The translations under genes and the position numbers were made by a program. A DNA stretch of 64,000 nucleotides, taken from Naegleria gruberi (lineage: Eukaryota). Position 1 is the stretch's first letter. Each line of letters starts with the position of its first letter. The stretch is from the NCBI GenBank assembly GCA_000004985.1, contig GG738874.1; one strand, given 5' to 3'. This document shows, in pieces, positions 3,578 through 59,026 of this stretch. The notes under the pieces were generated by a model. It was given only the letters and a program-made list of their open reading frames with translations, made no database searches and had not been told where the DNA came from.

Positions 3578-3650
3578 GCTGGCGTAGCTCAGTCGGTAGA
3601 GCGTTGGTCTAATAAGCCATTGGTCGCCGGTTCGATCCCGTCCGTCAGCA
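3578..3650 (+). tRNA. tRNA-Ile (anticodon AAT)
   Basis: 73-nt cloverleaf: acceptor GCTGGCG/CGTCAGC (one G·U), D-arm TAGCTCAGTCGGTAGAGC, anticodon loop CTAATAA, T-loop GGTTCGATCC; close to the eukaryotic tRNA-Ile(AAU) consensus; the 27:43 pair is U:U and the T-stem has one C:U mismatch. Confidence 0.85.
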
Positions 3651-9672: not shown

Positions 9673-12600
9673 ATGCAAAAGCAAGAGCCTTCGCCAACGA
9701 CGGCTCCAACAAACAACCACACCGGAAAGACTTATTCCAGCTCGATCGATGATTATCATGTTTTGGAATTAATTGGTGAAGGATCATTTGGAAAAGTCTT
9801 TAAGGGAAGAAGAAAATATACAAGTCAAATTGTCGCTATGAAATTTATCCCAAAGAAGGGAAAAAACGAGAAGGAGTTATACAACCTCAGACAAGAAATT
9901 AACATTTTAAAGAAGCTTAACCATGAAAATATAATTTTATTATTGGATTCGTTTGAAACTAAAGAGGAATTTTGCGTAGTGATGGAATTTGCTCAAGGAG
10001 AGTTATTTGAAATTCTTGAGGATGATGAACGTCTTCCGGAAGATGTTGTTGGCAAGATTGCTAAACAACTCGTAAGAGCTTTACACTATCTTCACTCTAA
10101 CAGAATTATCCACAGAGGTATGTAATAATATAATTGAAGATTATATCTTATCCCATCATCTCTGTACAACAATAGATATGAAACCACAAAATATTTTGAT
10201 AGGATCAGATGGTGCCATTAAATTGTGTGATTTTGGTTTTGCCAGAGTCATGTCTTGCAATACCATGGTTCTTACTTCTATCAAGGGTACACCTTTGTAT
10301 ATGGCTCCAGAATTGGTCCAAGAACAACCATACAACCACACAGCCGATCTGTGGTCACTTGGTGTTATTCTGTACGAGTTGGTTGTTGGTAAACCTCCAT
10401 TCTTTACTAACAACTTCTTTTCTCTTATTCAATTCATTGTGAAGGATCCTGTAAAATATCCACCTTATATCAGTCCTCCAATGAAGAGTTTCCTTAGAGG
10501 ATTATTGAATAAGGCACCAAAACAAAGATTGGACTGGCCAAAATTGCTTGAACATCCATTCGTTAGGGAAACAAAAGAAGAAAAGGAACAAAGAGAAAAA
10601 CTGTTATTGGATAATATTGGTAGAAAGAGACTTGAAATGTTCGAGAAAATTGTTGCCCTTAATCAAAAGCAAGATTCAAATACAAAGAAACCAAAGCAAC
10701 CATCCAAGACTCCTAGCCAAACAAGAGTGAAGAAAAAGGTTGAACCAAAGAGAGATAGTAAGTTTTTAAGATTTTTTTGGAATACTAATACTATTGATCA
10801 ACAGTACCTTTGTCTGAGATTGAAACAGCAATTGCAAAGGATGAAAATGGACCAAAGTCAGTAATGAAGAATGTGGAATATTTGGATAAATTGGCTAATC
10901 TTATTAAGGTTACTCAAACAGCTTACAAAACAAAATCAACAAAGACTGTCCAAACATCTCTTAAAATATTATCAAAAGCATTGGAAAAGTGTGAGGAAGA
11001 GGATTCTGATAACTTGGTGGATGCTGGAATTGTCAGTAGCTTATTGGTATTTTTGAAGGAATTTGCAGGAGCTAAATTTGACACCAAACCTATAGTACTC
11101 GATGCGTTAGTATCCTTACATTTTGCTCTTCCTTACGGAATTGAAGTTCTTAATTCCACTATAACTGACTACTTTTCAGTCATACCAAGTCTGATCGATT
11201 ACAGATATGACACCACACTTGCCGTTCAAATATATACAATGAAATGCTTGAAGGAATTGGGTCTGAAAGTAAGCTCGTCCCCACTTCAAACACAACCAGC
11301 TTTTGATTCTCTAAAAGATCCACTCATTTATGAATCATTGGCCTCATGTTTAGATTACAAAGTTATCAAGACTGAGAAGAAGTTTGTTACACATCTTTCC
11401 ACCACAAGTGCAAAGGCATTGGCTGAGTTAATGCACCCAACTGATGGAGATGTTTTCCAATTCCCTTGTGTCTTCCAATCAGAAAGTTCCTCATCTACAG
11501 AAAATATTGACTGCAACCAAGATATCAACATAAGAACAGCTATTGCTAAGGCTCTAGCCAAGCAAAATATAGTGAGCAGTCTGAGTGATCTTGTAAATTC
11601 ACCTGATTACAACAGTAGAATTGGAATTTTGAAGGTACTATTCCAGTCTTGTAGATTTTTGCCAGAGTTTGCTAGACAAGTAGCTCTCGATTCTCCTCTT
11701 GTTTCTTCAATAATGTCCTTAGTCAAGGATTCAACAGATATGAAGGTAATTTACGAAACTGAGCTCTCTTGTCTCTTGCTGGCAACTATCTTCAAAGAAA
11801 CACCAAAAATAATTCCTCAATTTGGTCGAGATATTGACACAGTCATTAATACCAGTGTATCTATCATCAATACTGCTCTAGATGAAAGATATAAATGCTT
11901 TGCAATTCTCCTTTTGGCCAGACTTTCTTCCAATCCAGACTCTAAGAAGAGAGTTATTAGCGAATTAATGACGCCTGTGGGAATGTCGAAATTGAACGAT
12001 GTTCTGACTAAGGATGTAAGTTAATATTTTTTTTATATTTTTCTTATTTTATTTCAGTTCTCAGTTTATCAATGGCACGAAATTAAAAGAGTGGAAGGTT
12101 CTGGATTTGGTTTCCCTGATATTGGTTTACTGGATGGTGTTGTGTACTTGTTTAATCAAGTGTCTGACATTTGGGCTTCATCATTCAATAATTTGCTTTC
12201 CAAGACTGGTGTTTGGAGATCTCTGACTGAAAGATTGAAATCAAGCGATATTGAAATGTCTCCAGATGCTGCCTTGGCAAGTATTAAATTAATGTATGAT
12301 ATTGCCTCGGCTAATCCTGACACCATTCCAACCCTTGTGGGTGATATGAGTATTGTTAGAACTGTTATTCAATGTTTGAAAAAGAATATTGTGACTGCAT
12401 TTTCACACTGGCCTGCTTCAAGAAGTGGTGGTTCATCCTTTGTAAACATCTTTATCAACTCCTCAGTGAGCCTTCTTCACTTGTTATATAATCAAGCCAC
12501 TCTTCAAGAAAAGGAAAATGAAAAATTGTTAGCTGAACTAATTAAGGTAACACACAAGGAAGAATTAGTCAAGTATTGTATTGGAAATTTGGAATTTACT

Positions 12601-13428
12601 ACAATGGAAAACTTTGGCTCATCCCTTAACTTCCTAGCTAGTATGGTTATTACATCACCTTTTTTCACCAAACAATTCATCAAGTTTGGTGGTCTTCAAC
12701 CAGAGTTTTTACAACAAATACTTAACACTTCGAATCCATCAACAGTTCTTATGGATGGACTTTCCATTCTCAGTCAAATTGCTAGAACCAGCAAGGATTA
12801 TTACAAGCAAATTCATCAAGCCAATATCTACACAAACATCAAAGATCTTCTTAAGCATAAGGAGAATGATGTCAGAGCGAAGGTTTGCAATTTGATAGGT
12901 AATATGTGCCGTCACTCTGCGTTCTTCTATGAAGCTTTGAATCAATATGGACTTATTCCAGATCTGATTCAAAGATGCAGAGATAATGATGCAAACACAA
13001 GAAAGTTTGCCTGCTTTGCTATTGGTAATGCTTGTTTCCACAATAATAACTTGTACAAAACCCTCACTCCTTCCATTCCTCCACTAATTGATTTACTGTC
13101 TGAGAATTCAGATGAAAAAACAAGAGCAAACGCTGCTGGTGCTCTGGGTAATCTGGTAAGAAATTCAAACGAGCTTGTAAAAGACTTGTTGAAGAATGGA
13201 GCCATAGAAGCCCTTGTTAAAACATTAAGCGATGATAATTCGAGTGCCAAGAAGATTGCTCTATTTTCTCTTGGCAACTTTTGTCAATATGAAGAGTGTT
13301 GTATTGTATTGAAACAGCTTAACTTTGAAAAGACCATTACAGAAATCATGGCTAAGAGCCAAGAAGATACTGGTGTTCAAAAATATTGTGCCAGAATCCA
13401 AACTAATCTCTCCAAAATAACTATTTAA
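9673..13428 (+). CDS. tsuA: Fused-family serine/threonine kinase (STK36 / tsunami orthologue), 4 exons: join(9673..10117,10176..10757,10805..12015,12058..13428)
   Basis: The kinase domain aligns with STK36/Fused over its full length ([56 protein letters not shown]); introns GTATGT..AG (58 nt), GTAAGT..CAG (47 nt) and GTAAGT..TTCAG (42 nt) keep one frame of 1203 codons; the C-terminal half is armadillo/HEAT-like, as in Fused. Confidence 0.8.
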
Positions 13429-16260: not shown

Positions 16261-16332
16261 CGGCCGTATAGCTCAGTGGTAGAGCTTCTCTCTCGTAAGG
16301 AGAAGGTCGTGGGTTCAAACCCCATTGCGGCC
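16261..16332 (+). tRNA. tRNA-Thr (anticodon CGT)
   Basis: 72-nt cloverleaf: acceptor GGCCGTA/TGCGGCC, D-arm AGCTCAGTGGTAGAGC, anticodon stem-loop TCTCT-CTCGTAA-GGAGA, T-arm GTGGGTTCAAACCCCAT. Confidence 0.85.
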
Positions 16333-16340
16333 AAATTTGA

Positions 16341-24321: not shown

Positions 24322-25341
24322 ATAAATTGTAAACTTGTGGTCAACCTTTTGTTAAAGAATATGTTCTGAATTTTATCTTAATCTAGATTGAATATTTGAA
24401 ATAACGCTGTGAGGGTGGGTGAGTATTTCCAGTGTTGTGTTAAAAAAGTGCTCAAAAAGGAAGTTTAGGTTGAGACCAAAAAAGAGTTGTATTGTGACAC
24501 AATGAGATCGTGAAGCTTTGAGAGAAGGCTCTCAATTCCATTCACTGGTATTTAAGAAAAAAAGAACAAGCACACTCGATGGCTGTCATGTTTGAGTGTC
24601 CAATTAATTGTTGGAGTTTTTATTGGGTTCATCATGTTATCTTGTCCATGATAAAAACTCTTGGATTTGGACACCTAGACATGACAACCATCTAAATAAA
24701 TTAGAATTATAAAAAGGAACTATTATTTTACAGTCTTTTGAAAGTCCAAGGATTCGGAATCGTTGTTGTGATAGAGTTGTACCTCCAGAATTGAGTAATT
24801 AAAGATGAGAATGTACACGTCTTGCTCTCACTCAACAAACCTTAATTTTTGAGTCTGTTCTGCTCGAATTTAAGATTAGTTTTGCGTCCGCAGGGCAGGT
24901 GTTTGAGGTAAAAAAAAATCTTTTATTACGACAATAACGAATCTATTCAGATTCTCATAGTTGAGGTAAAAAAAAATGAATAGAGACGATTACTATGATC
25001 TCAGTAAAGAGGAACTTTTATCCTTACTTTCATCTCCCTTCAAAGAAGGAGGGATTGGGATTGAACATGAACAGCTAAACCAACTTTTTGAGTTTTGTGG
25101 TGGCTCTTTTTTAAATGTCATTGTGAAGAATTTAGAAATTGGGGATTGCCTGGTATATTTTCGTAAAAGATGATTTGATTCCAAAGTATTGGATCCAATA
25201 CAACAATCACATTTTCAACAGATGAGAAATTTCCGTAGGAGTTTGATATTCATATTTATTGTAAAGGTTCTATTAGAAATGGATTGTTATCTGTTACATT
25301 CGCAAAATTTCCATATTGATAAGAAAGGACTAGTTAAAAAA

Positions 25342-28300
25342 ATGAAAGGTTCCATTGTCTGTATTGTTTGTGTTGTGTTGTTGGTGTTGACGATTCAATA
25401 TGAGAACAGCTTTGCATCTCTGACATCAAAACAACAACAATTAACACTCTTTCTAGATTCGAATAGTAATTTTATAAATTCTAATTGCTTGGAATCAACA
25501 TTTCCTTGCTCTAATTTTACACAAATTATTCAAGCCACTAGGAATTTATTAAACGAAACTAACAAGCTCGATAATTTGGAAGTTTTGGTTAGAATTCGGG
25601 GGGAAATTACTACTTGTGATCATGTCATTAATTTTTCACAATTTACAACAAATTTCAAGTTGAGTTTAGTCTCATGGGATGTGAACAACCAATTCTCTAT
25701 ACCACCACGTCGGTGTGTTTTCATTGATGAAGATTCTAGTTCTATTAATGAACTCTATTTGGAAAATGGACACATAGAGATGGATTTAACAAATCGAGAA
25801 TTTGATATAGTTTCGATTGTAAACTCTACAGGTGAAATGTATTTCAATACGAAAGAATTTTCATGTGATAGTTCAACGATTAACATAATCCTCAAAAATA
25901 GTGAAAACATTCGAATTAAGAATTCGAATATCGATATTAATTGTAAAGCAGGTACTCAATTTAATGATTTTAATGTGGAAAATTCAATTCTGATTATGAG
26001 TGACTCAGAAATTTCTAATTTTAACACATTCTCTATTAGAAATTCTATTTGGAAGTTGGAAAAAGTTAGTATCATCTATACTATCCGATTGAATCTTGGA
26101 GCATACGTTTCAATAACTGATTGTGAAATTATTGGAAGCAATGCCATGTTTGAAAATATTGACGTATTGGAAATGACAAGAATCAAGTCAAGAGAACTCG
26201 ATCATTTAACAGATGAGGATAGTAGTGTCACTATCTTTACACTATTCAATATTCGCAATATTAAGGTTTCAACCAGTAATTTCACAGAAAACAAATTTGC
26301 AGGCAGCGTTTTTGATATACAAGGATGTTATCAAGTGGAATTCACTAATTGTAATTTTTACAATAATTTACAAAAAGAATTCATTAGGGTGAGAGCAGTT
26401 CAAGATACAGATCTTTCAATTAGTGATTCAAAGTTTTTTGATAATAGGGTTGCAAATGCTCTAATTAATCAGGAACCATATCAGTTATTATTATTTTACA
26501 TCACTAATTGTGAATTTATGAGAAATTATGGTGGTTCAACCGGTTCAGTATTGAATCTCTATAGAAGTGATGTATATATTGAAACGTCAAGCTTTTCACA
26601 TAATATGGCAATTAAGGGAGGAGCCATCTATGGATTGAACACTAAAACTCTAGAACTTAAAAACTCAAATTTTACAAATAATGAAGCAGATTATGGAGGT
26701 GCTATTTTTTTAGTTTACTCTCAACTCTACAAAGGAAATGCACTACATCTGATTAACAGTTTATGTGATGGAAATGTTGCAAATATTGCAGGTGGTTGTT
26801 TGTTCAGCAATGATAACTATTCAATGAAGTTAATTAAAGGAGTGAATAGAGCAGGATTTTATGGTAATACTTTGGCCTCTGGTTTGGTCGGATTGATTGT
26901 AGAATTGGAAGATAAGAATGGAAAGTATCAAACTGTTACGAATCAAACAATTAATGTGTTTCCTGGTGAATACATGAACTTTAGAATCATTTTATATGAC
27001 ATGTATTACCAGAAAACTTCAAAATTGAGAGATGGTGACTTGTTGATATCATTAGAAGAATCTCAATCATTCGTTATGCAAAGTCAAAATTTTGCAAATG
27101 GAAACGAAAGCATTCTATTGAGTAATACTCAAATTTTACTCAAGAATTCCAAACATTTTTTTAATTCCTCAACATTTTTAAGACTCAACATTCTCGGTAT
27201 GGAAAGAATAATTCATTTGAACATTGTAGAATGTCCATTAGGATATTCAATGTCAAGAAATTCTGGAACTTTTAAATGTGAAATAATTCCACTTGAAATT
27301 ATAATTCCATCAGCCATACTTGGAACAATATCCTTGATTATTATTTCGATTAGTTTGATTATTGGATCAGTTTACATTATTAGAAAATTGAAGAAATTGA
27401 GGAAACAAGAAAGAGCAGAAATGGAAATTCAGAAAAAGTTTACAGATAATAATTTCATATTTAACAATTCAAATTCTGATGTGTTATCTGAATTACATGT
27501 TCCATTGATAGAATCTTCAAAAAGCAATCAATCATCTTACCAATACACAATACCAATTTCGGATATTAACATAATTTCAAAAATAGGAGAAGGAACAAAT
27601 GGAATAGTTTATAAAGGAAAATGGCAAAGGACTGATGTAGCCATAAAACAACTGAAGACTTCAGAAGAGGATAGTGAGGAATTTGAAAGAGAAGCCATTT
27701 TAATGAGCTCATTGAGACATCCTTCAATTGTCAGTTGTTTTGGAGTCTCTCTGACACTCAATAGCAAGTATATGGTGGTAAGTTTTCTGATTTTTCGATT
27801 AAAGTTTAAAACGAATTTATAATAGGTTGAATATTTGGAAAATGGAAGTTTAGATAAAGCTCTTTATAATTCTAGAATTGGAAGAGAAAAATTACTATTC
27901 GAAACCAAGTTGAATATTCTATTCGATGTTGCCAAAGGAATGGTCTATCTTCACTCCATCAATCCTAACAAGATTATTCACAGGTGAGTTGATTGGAAAC
28001 AATTTTTATGATTAATTTCCATTTAGAGATTTAAAACCAGGAAATATTTTGCTTACCAAAAATATGAATGCAAAGGTTGGAGATTTTGGATTGAGTAAAA
28101 TAGTCTCGAATAACACTGCAACCATGACTACAAACGTTGGAACTTTGTTGTATATTGTAAGTTTAGTTTCATTATTTGAAATTTTCTAATAAGAAAAAGG
28201 CCCCTGTAAGTTAATACTATTTTGAAATTTTAAATTTAGGAATGATATTTTATGATAGGAATTATTATCAAGTTATCACAAAGGTCAAACAACAAAATTA

Positions 28301-28910
28301 GATGTTTATTCGTTTGGGGTAATCATGTGGGAAATTTTATTCGAAATAATACCATTTTCAAACGAACTTTCAGATGTGAACACTCCATTTGCAATGTGTC
28401 CACTCTTTCTTTTGATAATTATCATTGGAATACTAAATAGAATCATGACAAGACAGAGAAATGTCAAAATTGATGAAATGATTGGAGTAAATATTGAATC
28501 GGGACAGATGGTTGTGTTTGGGGTGATGGTTGGCTCGTAATTAAGGGCTCCTAATTGAAATAATAGAGGATGACATGGTGAAGTAATGTTCAACTGAGAT
28601 GTGTTGAGAAGTGACATTTTTTTTTGAATCATTTTAGTTATCTCTGTAAAATTAATGGGATCTATCCTTAAGAGATATCTCAATTGACCTCAATGTAATA
28701 GTATAAATGGATTGCCCAAATGAATTCATACAAGAAAATTTTACCAATAAGGAAATTCAAAGATTTGGAACTGAACTAATTTCAAATTGTTTGAGGGAGT
28801 ATATAGAATTGATGAAATTATGTTGGCACACCAATCCTAATGAAAGACCTGAATTTATACAAATTTCTGCAAGTTTAGAATCCATAATTGATTTGTTAAC
28901 AGGGAATTAA
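25342..28910 (+). CDS. receptor-like protein kinase: signal peptide, pectin-lyase-like β-helix ectodomain, one TM, TKL-type kinase; about 6 exons: join(25342..27777,27826..27983,28027..28156,28200..28205,28259..~28400,~28730..28910)
   Basis: Signal peptide MKGSIVCIVCVVLLVLTIQ; about 600 aa of parallel β-helix repeats (GGAIYG, YGGAIF, NxxGG); TM segment IIPSAILGTISLIIISISLIIGSVYII; kinase subdomains GEGTNGIVYKG / AIKQL / HRDLKPGNILL / DFGLS / APE / DVYSFG / CW..P..RP; the GT..AG introns keep the frame; the last two junctions are not resolved. Confidence 0.6.
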
Positions 28911-29385: not shown

Positions 29386-31845
29386 ATGAAAGAACTCGAC
29401 TTTTCAAAGAGTATTTTCATCATCACGATATTATTATTATTAATTCTTCATCATTTTGAATACTATTCTAATCAAGGAGGGTTCGTGTTGGGGGCTGGTG
29501 TTGTTCGTACCCTTGTTGGTAGTATGAGAGGATTGGATAAAGTATTAGCCACTCAAACTTCTCTTAATCTTCCCTCGAGTATCACTCATGAAGATGCGAA
29601 CGGTGAATACTATATTTCAGAGTCTTACATGGGGGTGATATGGAGAGTATTCAATAATGGGACAATGGTAAGATTTGCAGGAACAGGTTTTCAAGGATAT
29701 AATGGAGATGGAAAATTGGCTTTAGAGACAGATTTGAATTATCCAGGAAGTTTAATGATGTATGATGGAGAGCTATACTTTTCCGATCTTTCCAATTATT
29801 TAGTTAGGAAGGTTGATAGGAATGGCTATGTGAGAACAGTGGCTGGTTCAATTAAATCATATGGATATGCTGACAATGTCCTTGCAAATGAAACAAATAT
29901 TTATCCCACTGGGATTTATGTTACAAAATTGGGAGAAGTTTTAATTGCTGATTCTTCCATTCACAGAATTCGAAAGGTGCTAAATAATGGAACGATAATA
30001 ACGATTGCAGGAAATGGAAAACAAGGTTATAACGGAGAAGGTTTATCTGGTTTAGATTCTGCACTTAAGGAACCATATTCTGTAGACATGGACTCTGATG
30101 GAAACATCTATTTTGCAGATAAGGGTAATTCTATAATTCGAAAAATATTAGCATCCAATGGAGCAGTGATAACAGTTGCTGGAAACGGAACTAAGGGATA
30201 TTTTGCAAATACTATTGATGCCTTGTCTTCTCAACTTGATACTCCAGTCATGGTGACTGTAGGTAAGAATGGAGAATTTTACATTGTGACTGGTAATTTA
30301 ATAAGAAAGGTTTCTAGTGATGGATTAATTTCTACTGTTGTAGGAACTGGGGCTACAGGTCCTTTTGAAGATAATATTCTAGCCGTCAATGCCACCTTGG
30401 GTATTCCTTCGGATGTGAAGATTAGCAGAAATTCAGAGTTGTTGATAGTGGATACTTTCAATTATAGAATTAGAAAAGTTCTTTTGAATGGAACGATTCA
30501 AACAATTGCAGGAAATGGATTCGACCGATTCAATGGAGACGGATTACAAGCAAAGGACACATTACTAAATAGCCCATCCTCTTTAATTGTAAACCCAGAT
30601 CAAAGCTTGTACATTGTTGAGAGAGATAATCAGAGAATTAGAAAAGTTGATCCAAACGGAATTGTGTCAACTTTTATTGGTACTGGAAAGAGAGGCTTTA
30701 ATGGTGATAGGTTGGCTTTGGACGTGCAATTGTACAATCCTACATCTATCTCTATTGATTCGAATGGAACAATTTGGTTCTCAGAGGCCAATAGCCATCG
30801 AATTCGTAAATTATTAAGCAATGGAACAGTGATAACAGTGGTTGGGTCCACCACTGGAAGTACAGCTGATGGTCCTGCATTGCAAACAAAACTCACAATT
30901 CCAAACGGCATCGGTTTTGACTTGGATGGATCTCTATTAATTGCTGACAGATATAATCACAGAATTAGAAAGTTATTAAGTAATGGGACTTTAATTACTA
31001 TTGCAGGAACAGGTGTTTCTGGAAAGGGAGGTGATGATATTCTAGCCACTAATTCCTCCTTGAATCAACCTTCTGGAGTTTGTACCATGCCAAATGGTGA
31101 CATTCTAATTGCTGATAGAGCCAATCATCAAATTCGTCGTCTGTTTGTTAATGGCACTATCAAAACAATTGCAGGAACAGGCAGTAGTGGGTATAATGGA
31201 GACGGTTTACCAGCAACAAGCTCCACACTTAATTATCCTCAAACGGTTACAATGTTTCATAATGAAATTTATATGGTTGATACTTCTAATAGTCGAATTA
31301 GAAAGATACTCAATAATGGGACAATGATTACTATTGTTGGCAATGGAATAAGAGGTGACAGTTTGGATGGATTAGATCCACTTGAATCTAAATTGAAATC
31401 ACCCTATCATGTCACCTTTGATTCTAGAGGAAGAATGTACATTTCTGATTACTCGAATCATAAAATTAAGGTTGTCGATTTCAATTCAAGCCCAGAAACC
31501 AATACAACTTTCAATAATAGAACATTACCAAGCACTGATAGTAATACTACATCTGCAATCAGTAATTCAACCTTAAACAATAATTCGACAAATTTATATA
31601 ATAGTACAGTGATTGGAAATAATAGTCTACCAAATAATGGATCTCTCATTCCATCGACTAGTAATAGTACAATAGTAACACCAACATCGAATCATTCTTT
31701 CACAAGCATACCAATTAGAAACAGTACTTTTGTTTCACAATCTCAAAAAAGTTGCATTCCAACAAAGTGGTTGGTTCTTCTTCTGTTCGTAGCATTCTTA
31801 TTGACAACAAATCCACAAGATTATGACAATAAAAATGTTGAATAA
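29386..31845 (+). CDS. secreted or GPI-anchored NHL-repeat β-propeller protein with a C-terminal N/S/T-rich stalk
   Basis: Signal peptide; at least 12 NHL-type repeats (..D..N.YVAD..NHRIRKV..NGTI.TIAG.G); Ser/Thr/Asn-rich tail ending in a hydrophobic segment (WLVLLLFVAFLL). Confidence 0.7.
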   Translation: MKELDFSKSIFIITILLLLILHHFEYYSNQGGFVLGAGVVRTLVGSMRGLDKVLATQTSLNLPSSITHEDANGEYYISESYMGVIWRVFNNGTMVRFAGTGFQGYNGDGKLALETDLNYPGSLMMYDGELYFSDLSNYLVRKVDRNGYVRTVAGSIKSYGYADNVLANETNIYPTGIYVTKLGEVLIADSSIHRIRKVLNNGTIITIAGNGKQGYNGEGLSGLDSALKEPYSVDMDSDGNIYFADKGNSIIRKILASNGAVITVAGNGTKGYFANTIDALSSQLDTPVMVTVGKNGEFYIVTGNLIRKVSSDGLISTVVGTGATGPFEDNILAVNATLGIPSDVKISRNSELLIVDTFNYRIRKVLLNGTIQTIAGNGFDRFNGDGLQAKDTLLNSPSSLIVNPDQSLYIVERDNQRIRKVDPNGIVSTFIGTGKRGFNGDRLALDVQLYNPTSISIDSNGTIWFSEANSHRIRKLLSNGTVITVVGSTTGSTADGPALQTKLTIPNGIGFDLDGSLLIADRYNHRIRKLLSNGTLITIAGTGVSGKGGDDILATNSSLNQPSGVCTMPNGDILIADRANHQIRRLFVNGTIKTIAGTGSSGYNGDGLPATSSTLNYPQTVTMFHNEIYMVDTSNSRIRKILNNGTMITIVGNGIRGDSLDGLDPLESKLKSPYHVTFDSRGRMYISDYSNHKIKVVDFNSSPETNTTFNNRTLPSTDSNTTSAISNSTLNNNSTNLYNSTVIGNNSLPNNGSLIPSTSNSTIVTPTSNHSFTSIPIRNSTFVSQSQKSCIPTKWLVLLLFVAFLLTTNPQDYDNKNVE

Positions 31846-46367: not shown

Positions 46368-46545
46368 TTTTTTTTATCTAGTTTTGGGTCGACAATTAGT
46401 TTTTGTTACAATGTATGTCCAATTTTCAAAGAAAAAAAATTGGTTGCTTTTAATATAAACATAATTAAAATTACTTCTGCTTAACCACTGCTAGCCTGGC
46501 CCATAGTTAAATACGAAGTAAATGTTAAAAGATATTTCCCGTGAT

Positions 46546-46618
46546 CCCCCTTAGCTCAGTCGGTAGAGCGTCAGACTGTTAATCTGCAGGTCGGTGGTTC
46601 GAGCCCACCAGGGGGAGA
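46546..46618 (+). tRNA. tRNA-Asn (anticodon GTT)
   Basis: 73-nt cloverleaf: acceptor TCCCCCT/AGGGGGA (U1:A72), D-arm TAGCTCAGTCGGTAGAGC, anticodon loop CTGTTAA, T-arm GGTGGTTCGAGCCCACC. Confidence 0.8.
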
Positions 46619-58952: not shown

Positions 58953-59026
58953 GCAGCGATAGATCAGTTGGTTAGATCGTAAGCCTAACACGCTTAAGGT
59001 CGCGGGTTCAAGCCCCGCTCGCTGTA
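58953..59026 (+). tRNA. tRNA-Val (anticodon AAC)
   Basis: 74-nt cloverleaf: acceptor GCAGCGA/TCGCTGT (G1·U72), D-arm TAGATCAGTTGGTTAGATC, anticodon stem-loop TAAGC-CTAACAC-GCTTA, T-arm GCGGGTTCAAGCCCCGC. Confidence 0.85.

Follow-up and report, generated by a model that had tools for sequence, protein, structure and literature searches.

A candidate six-nucleotide coding exon supplying the Ala-Pro of the APE motif in a receptor kinase gene of Naegleria gruberi

We analyzed a 64,000-nucleotide (nt) stretch of the Naegleria gruberi genome (contig GG738874.1), referred to here as the window. Positions 25342–28910 of the + strand contain one gene encoding a transmembrane receptor kinase of ~1000 residues, and the hexamer GCCCCT at 28200–28205 is very probably a genuine internal coding exon of this gene. 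A sequence-only reading of the window had proposed that these two codons, Ala-Pro, restore the APE motif of kinase subdomain VIII. The positions and strings that it gave were exact (GTLLYI followed by GTAAGT at 28156/28157, AAAAAG, GCCCCT, GTAAGT and the AG at 28257–28258), and its proposal agrees with the splice sites, the reading frame, the relatives of the protein, Pfam scores, chance expectation, a sister strain and the position of an intron in a related gene. That reading had also taken the host to be an amoebozoan, which was wrong; the organism is N. gruberi NEG-M (Heterolobosea, Discoba).

The segment from 28194 to 28211 reads AAAAAG/GCCCCT/GTAAGT, with a canonical AG directly 5' of the hexamer and a canonical GT, as part of GTAAGT, directly 3' of it. 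Exon 3 terminates with GGAACTTTGTTGTATATT at 28156 (GTLLYI) and is followed by the GTAAGT donor of intron 3a at 28157–28162; the GTAAGT at 28206–28211 is the donor of intron 3b. The next stop-free, in-frame acceptor is the AG at 28257–28258, after which the sequence continues with GAATTATTATCAAGT (also GAATTATTA), encoding ELLSSYHKGQTTKLDVYSFG, which opens with ELLSSYHKG. Read-through from 28157 runs into a TAA stop codon, and so does a transcript joining 28156 to 28200 without use of the second donor (GCC CCT GTA AGT TAA). With the hexamer included the junctions are in phase 0, the frame is kept and the product is GTLLYIAPELL, the predicted mRNA being ...GGA ACT TTG TTG TAT ATT/GCC CCT/GAA TTA TTA... 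(GTLLYI-AP-ELL). An AG at 28192–28193 also gives an in-frame exon, in this case of 12 bases (28194–28205, AAAAAGGCCCCT, encoding KKAP). The predicted diagnostic strings are TTGTATATTGCCCCTGAATTATTA, TATATTGCCCCTGAATTA, TATATTGCCCCT, TTGTTGTATATTGCCCCTGAATTATTATCAAG and TTGTATATTGCCCCTGAATTA for inclusion of the 6-nt exon, and TATATTAAAAAGGCCCCTGAA, TATATTAAAAAGGCCCCT and TTGTATATTAAAAAGGCCCCTGAATTA for the 12-nt form. Skipping would join 28156 to 28259 (TTGTATATT/GAATTATTA), for which the diagnostic string is TTGTTGTATATTGAATTATTATCAAG.

This arrangement is unlikely to have arisen by chance. The pattern AGGCNCCNGT (AG-GCNCCN-GT) occurs once in the window compared to an expectation of 0.21 for the 128,000 positions of the two strands, and for the ~90 possible positions within the 102-base interval the chance expectation is ~1.5e-4. 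When the full donor was added to the pattern (AGGCNCCNGTRAGT, with GTRAGT), none of 100 shuffled sequences contained a match. The window has no excess of GTAAGT by itself (23 observed, 21.9 expected), and the argument therefore depends on sites, frame and encoded residues taken together. The other credible introns of the window are 42–99 nt long and start with GTAAGT, GTATGT or GTGAGT, mostly with one of the first two. Introns 3a (43 nt) and 3b (53 nt) fall within this size range, and the GTAAGT donor is common to introns 1 and 3a and to several further window introns.

The sequence-only reading had suggested a comparison with orthologues in related species, and comparison with relatives came out in its favor. 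We aligned the region from HRD to the PF motif with ten relatives that reach the APE point, consisting of five metagenome open reading frames (ORFs), two N. gruberi paralogues, Willaertia magna and two spliced metagenome genes. In 10/10 exactly two residues, [A/S/C/P]-P, lie between Y-x and the Glu. The product of the 6-nt exon aligns without gaps, whereas skipping leaves the product two residues short and the 12-nt product (KKAP) has a 2-residue insertion found in no relative. Relatives of the kinase domain include the N. gruberi paralogues XP_002678082.1 (70% identity), P0125 and P0150, the metagenome ORFs P0121, P0122 and P0126–P0128 (52–65% identity) and the Willaertia magna gene. The latter, which is intronless in the APE region, reads MTTNVGTLFYLAPEML where the window gene reads MTTNVGTLLYI[AP]ELL. 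A scan of Joint Genome Institute (JGI) metagenomes returned a single distant kinase locus (L005), and exact look-ups of window ORFs downstream of the micro-exon gave no matches.

Profile scores gave the same ranking. With PK_Tyr_Ser-Thr/Pkinase, the 6-nt AP product scored 191.1/178.8 bits for the window and 188.2/179.0 bits for the sister allele. The corresponding scores were 181.2/161.4 and 178.3/162.1 bits for the skipped product, and 188.7/170.0 (window, KKAP) and 185.9/170.5 bits (sister, IKAP) for the 12-nt product. Thus, skipping costs 10–17 bits and the 12-base exon 2–9 bits, and the ranking is alike in the window and the sister allele.

Two independent assemblies of run ERR1078381, the ENA metagenome assembly ERZ929261 and one from Logan, represent the sister strain, which is ~99.3% identical; no mention of PRJEB11402 was found in the literature. 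Locus L001 spans exon 1, while L006 and L007 extend from exon 2 past the stop codon. Exon 1 and L001 are 99.3% identical; of their differences, 12 are synonymous and 5 are non-synonymous, which indicates that the receptor kinase gene is under purifying selection (rough dN/dS ~0.1, assuming that 3/4 of sites are non-synonymous). Of the four substitutions identified in the 534 nt between 27862 and 28395, intron 2 and intron 3a (A to T at 28195) have one each and intron 3b has two; the coding parts of this interval (exons 2 and 3, the micro-exon and the start of the last exon) have none. The probability that all four would fall within the 139 intronic bases of the 534 by chance is (139/534)^4 = 0.005. 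AG/GCCCCT/GTAAGT is unchanged in the sister strain. Located between the candidate acceptors, the substitution at 28195 would replace Lys with Ile in the 12-nt version (AAA to ATA), which argues that the bases at 28194–28199 are intronic.

Introns near the APE codons were also found in relatives. Locus L003 (JGI 3300002220) contains a 46-nt intron (616–661, phase 0) directly after GCA CCA (AP), the position occupied by intron 3b in the window gene. In L004 a 38-nt intron (1609–1646, phase 2) lies inside the Ser codon of SPE, and the sole intron of L008 is in the glycine loop (2051–2088, phase 1). The Willaertia gene and the other ORFs have no introns in the APE region. Judged from these sequences, the occurrence of introns in the receptor kinase family is sporadic. 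Three intron positions are located within 6 nt, i.e. before Ala (window gene), inside the Ala/Ser codon (L004) and after Pro (window gene and L003). AP is flanked by an intron on either side only in the window gene; the relatives have a contiguous APE or a single nearby intron. As the position after AP is shared with L003, this intron would be the older one, and intron 3a was probably gained later, or else was lost in the relatives. Tandem duplication was considered as the origin of introns 3a and 3b, which share GTAAGTT and TTTGAAATTTT; it was rejected, since 400 of 2000 shuffles equaled the alignment score. The closest paralogue, XP_002678082.1 (P0124), encoded on a 467,654-bp scaffold outside the window, is a partial protein ending in ...SNVGT, five residues before the equivalent of the exon 3 end, and may be cut off by the same kind of structure.

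Several observations weigh against a 6-nt exon. The acceptor of intron 3a is an AAG that follows a purine-rich stretch, the rarer acceptor type among the window introns, and the upstream AG at 28192–28193 offers the in-frame 12-nt alternative. Six bases and 0.7% divergence are too few for conservation of the micro-exon to be significant alone, and the protein search matches included no transcript or spliced product of the gene. Moreover, the last exon is disrupted at 28396–28718, such that the NEG-M allele may yield no functional kinase. The weak acceptor, which has no pyrimidine tract, could be accommodated by a single 102-nt intron (28157–28258) in which GCCCCT is intronic, the protein lacking Ala-Pro (GTLLYIELL) always or in its main isoform. 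Such an intron would barely exceed the 42–99 nt range of the window, and the 28156/28259 join is in frame and free of stops. We regard this explanation as very unlikely, given that none of the 10 relatives carries the 2-residue deletion, that 10–17 bits are lost in Pfam, that an in-frame AG-GCNCCN-GTAAGT would appear inside an intron with a probability of ~1e-4 or less, and that the hexamer and both of its sites stayed the same while surrounding intron bases changed. Use of the AG at 28192–28193, the first AG after a CTAAT motif at 28186–28190, would give the exon encoding KKAP, which is in frame and stop-free and scores only 2.4 (PK_Tyr_Ser-Thr) to 8.8 bits (Pkinase) below the 6-nt form. That outcome appears highly unlikely, as none of the relatives carries extra residues between Y-x and A-P and the sister strain has ATA for AAA, a Lys to Ile change amid an otherwise unchanged coding stretch. 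In addition, CTAAT is a plausible branch site, situated 10 nt from the AG ending at 28199 and 3–4 nt from the AG ending at 28193. An AG only 3–4 nt from the branch adenosine (here probably 28189) is too close for splicing, which would explain use of the second AG. The weak AAG acceptor does make partial skipping of the 6-nt exon conceivable. One speculative extension, which we consider improbable, is that the micro-exon is an alternatively skipped cassette, by which the receptor would switch from an active kinase to a form that lacks APE and is probably inactive; a separate idea in the same vein, equally improbable, is that the APE codons are a hot spot for intron gain or sliding in the receptor kinase family, as the three intron positions within 6 nt would suggest, in which case the micro-exon would be a by-product of two independent insertions.

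The disruption of the last exon raises the further possibility that NEG-M carries a recently disabled allele, or a pseudogene, in which the micro-exon architecture is real and comes from a functional ancestor while an active kinase is no longer produced. We consider this scenario possible but rather doubtful. In favor of it, a 323-nt segment (28396–28718) stands in place of 69 coding nt of the sister allele (ILLKVITGYRPSLSLIGDNFENI), and it contains stop codons in both relevant frames: the incoming frame is closed at 28538–28540, and in the outgoing frame a TAA (28704–28706) immediately precedes the conserved tail. In the window, GILNRIM takes the place of the conserved G-x-R-P-x-I-P motif, and the three homologue searches, whose matches were limited in length, returned no protein model for the gene. 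On the other side, exon 1 is under purifying selection, canonical sites are kept in all four kinase-domain introns and the sister allele is intact, its last exon being one uninterrupted ORF, ...TPFAILLKVITGYRPSLSLIGDNFENINEFIQENF...TGN followed by a stop codon (P0241). Furthermore, an intron of 265 nt at 28487–28751 (GTAAAT...AATAAG) could still rescue the frame; it was the best of the enumerated single-intron rescues, and we found nothing in its support. A 215-nt intron (28487–28701) combined with a 1-nt frameshift after YKWIAQMNSYKK was dropped because NEFIQENF directly continues the exon in the sister allele. In the alignment with L006 and L007, the aberrant segment shows only loose similarity in places. 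Neither the window nor the fetched loci contained a second copy of it, and a mobile element was rejected on this basis; no search for terminal repeats or target-site duplications was carried out. The segment could be a structural polymorphism, part of a disabled allele or a gene-conversion tract. As the intact sister allele shares the micro-exon architecture, that architecture is unaffected by the disruption.

Inclusion of the 6-nt exon in the mRNA, as deduced from the genomic sequence, would require removal of two ordinary U2-type introns of 43 and 53 nt, each starting with GTAAGT, from around GCCCCT. Ala-Pro and the Glu of the next exon would then form the APE that closes the activation segment, keeping the universal G-T-x-x-Y-x-A-P-E spacing. 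In kinases this Glu pairs with an Arg of subdomain XI, which is found here in NERPEF. The ends of such short introns would be paired across the intron (intron definition), making exon length irrelevant. Introns 3a and 3b are probably removed stepwise, because 3' and 5' sites only 6 nt apart could hardly be occupied together.

In plants and animals, constitutive coding micro-exons of a few to ~15 nt have been found by homology- or RNA-seq-guided re-annotation. As in N. gruberi, they are very short in-frame exons with canonical AG/GT flanks that encode residues of a conserved domain, and they are missed by ab initio predictors and revealed by a gap in a protein alignment. The Naegleria case differs in that it occurs in an intron-poor heterolobosean, is flanked by introns of 43 and 53 nt and is known from genome sequence. 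It seems to be a further example of a constitutive micro-exon, in a lineage where apparently no case has been described; our literature search found no relevant paper joining Naegleria with microexon or micro-exon. In Caenorhabditis elegans, micro-exons with very short flanking introns (49–58 nt; tcer-1 type) are spliced without PRP-40, for which the authors proposed intron definition (PMC8378409). We infer the corresponding mechanism for the N. gruberi exon by analogy with these cases, in which the exon likewise lies between introns of ~50 nt and intron rather than exon definition is proposed. The C. elegans micro-exons measure up to 27 nt and were studied for their neuronal regulation, whereas the Naegleria exon has 6 nt and is presumably constitutive. 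Recursive splice sites resemble the present arrangement in that a 5' site closely follows a 3' site within what appears to be a single intron, with removal probably stepwise. A recursive site, in which AG and GT are juxtaposed, leaves nothing behind; in contrast, six bases lie between the AG (28198–28199) and the GT (28206–28207) of the Naegleria site, which would leave six coding bases in the mRNA. The protein itself resembles the beta-helix receptor kinases of Naegleria and Willaertia (XP_002678082.1, ABK040_004185 and the metagenome ORFs), with which it has in common the arrangement of an ectodomain, a transmembrane helix and a TKL-like kinase domain, 52–70% identity in the kinase domain and the motif MTxNxGTLxYxAPE. 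Willaertia ABK040_004185 is 28% identical across 51% of the full-length query.

All features of the gene are on the + strand. Exon 1 (25342–27777) is an open frame of 812 codons up to ...SKYMV and encodes a signal peptide, a putative beta-helix-type ectodomain, a transmembrane helix, the juxtamembrane region and the kinase N-lobe. The signal peptide, MKGSIVCIVCVVLLVLTIQ, begins at 25342, and the ectodomain is long and Asn/Ser-rich with visible repeats of the GGAIY/GGAIF type. A Pfam search of exon 1 (E <= 0.01) gave the kinase match alone, at residues 743–812; relatives of the receptor kinase carry PF02415 (Chlamydial-PMP) and PF13229 (right-handed beta-helix). An in-frame ATG at 25222, 120 nt upstream (25222–25341), could lengthen the ORF, but the signal peptide starts from 25342. 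In the A-run directly before the ATG at 25342, the window and the sister strain differ by a single base (25335). Intron 1 (27778–27825; 48 nt, GTAAGT...AATAG, phase 0) has one substitution in the sister strain, at 27796, and its removal gives YMV/VEYLENGSL, matching the relatives. Exon 2 (27826–27983; VEYLENGSL...NKIIH) closes with two bases of an Arg codon and is identical to L006 across the part that L006 covers. Intron 2 (27984–28026; 43 nt, GTGAGT...TTTAG, phase 2) lies within the Arg codon of HRD; its removal restores IIHRDLKPGN, such that the HRD Arg depends on this splicing event. Exon 3 (28027–28156) encodes (R)DLKPGNILL...DFGLSK...MTTNVGTLLYI, has the same sequence in L006 and L007, and is followed by intron 3a (28157–28199; GTAAGT...AAAAAG, phase 0), the micro-exon, and intron 3b (28206–28258; GTAAGT...GATAG, phase 0). 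The start of the last exon (28259–28395; ELLSSYHKGQTTKLDVYSFGVIMWEILFEIIPFSNELSDVNTPFA) is identical in L006 and L007. Beyond the aberrant segment, the conserved C-terminal coding sequence (28719–28910; NEFIQENF...NCLREYIELMKLCWHTNPNERPEF...TGN, stop codon), which covers subdomain XI, has one difference from L006. The spliced translation contains the catalytic motifs of kinases: GxGxxG as GEGTNG, the Lys of VAIK, the alphaC Glu in EFEREA, HRDLKxxN as HRDLKPGN, DFG and the subdomain XI Arg in NERPEF; it contains APE only with the micro-exon. The window product matches PF00069 in one stretch (profile positions 3–257/263), and its match to PF07714 is split in two, the best part reaching position 198; the sister-allele product matches over profile positions 2–257/258 with 188 bits. 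The product fits the eukaryotic protein kinase catalytic domain (PF00069/PF07714) and is TKL-like.

Three homologue searches, which returned only matches of ~0.5–1.75 times the query length, identified no N. gruberi protein model for the receptor kinase gene; a model of ~380–550 amino acids (aa) could be missed in this way. Five intronless ORFs of the window are residue-identical to N. gruberi proteins, e.g. 29386–31842, which corresponds to XP_002676061.1 (NAEGRDRAFT_68760). In the N. gruberi reference, the receptor kinase gene seems to lack an annotation, and a possibly disabled 3' end could also explain the missing model.

The N. gruberi genome is intron-poor, with 1.7 exons per gene, and has a GC content of 33% (PMC8296547); the GC content of the window, 0.30–0.36, agrees with this value. 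The gene downstream of the kinase (29386–31845) is NAEGRDRAFT_68760, which encodes an NHL-repeat protein of 819 aa. In the sister strain (L006, 1305–3782) the NHL-repeat gene is present in the same order and is 6 residues longer (825 aa). A Fused/STK36-like serine/threonine kinase gene of the window (9675–13428) has short introns at 10118–10175, 10758–10804 and 12016–12057 and a contiguous APE. The first of these introns interrupts the Asp codon that follows HR and is displaced by 2 nt relative to intron 2 of the receptor kinase gene. Four tRNA genes were identified on the + strand (3578–3650, 16262–16333, 46545–46617 and 58953–59026; Rfam RF00005, 60–70 bits).

General concepts are unchanged by this finding, because micro-exons and the ease with which they are missed are already well known. 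For the N. gruberi reference genome, the structure of the receptor kinase gene would be corrected, and very short Naegleria introns would be seen to bracket an exon of only two codons. Kinase models of N. gruberi that are listed as partial, such as XP_002678082.1, may hide similar structures. With this gene, splicing by intron definition could also be tested simply in vivo in a deep-branching eukaryote.

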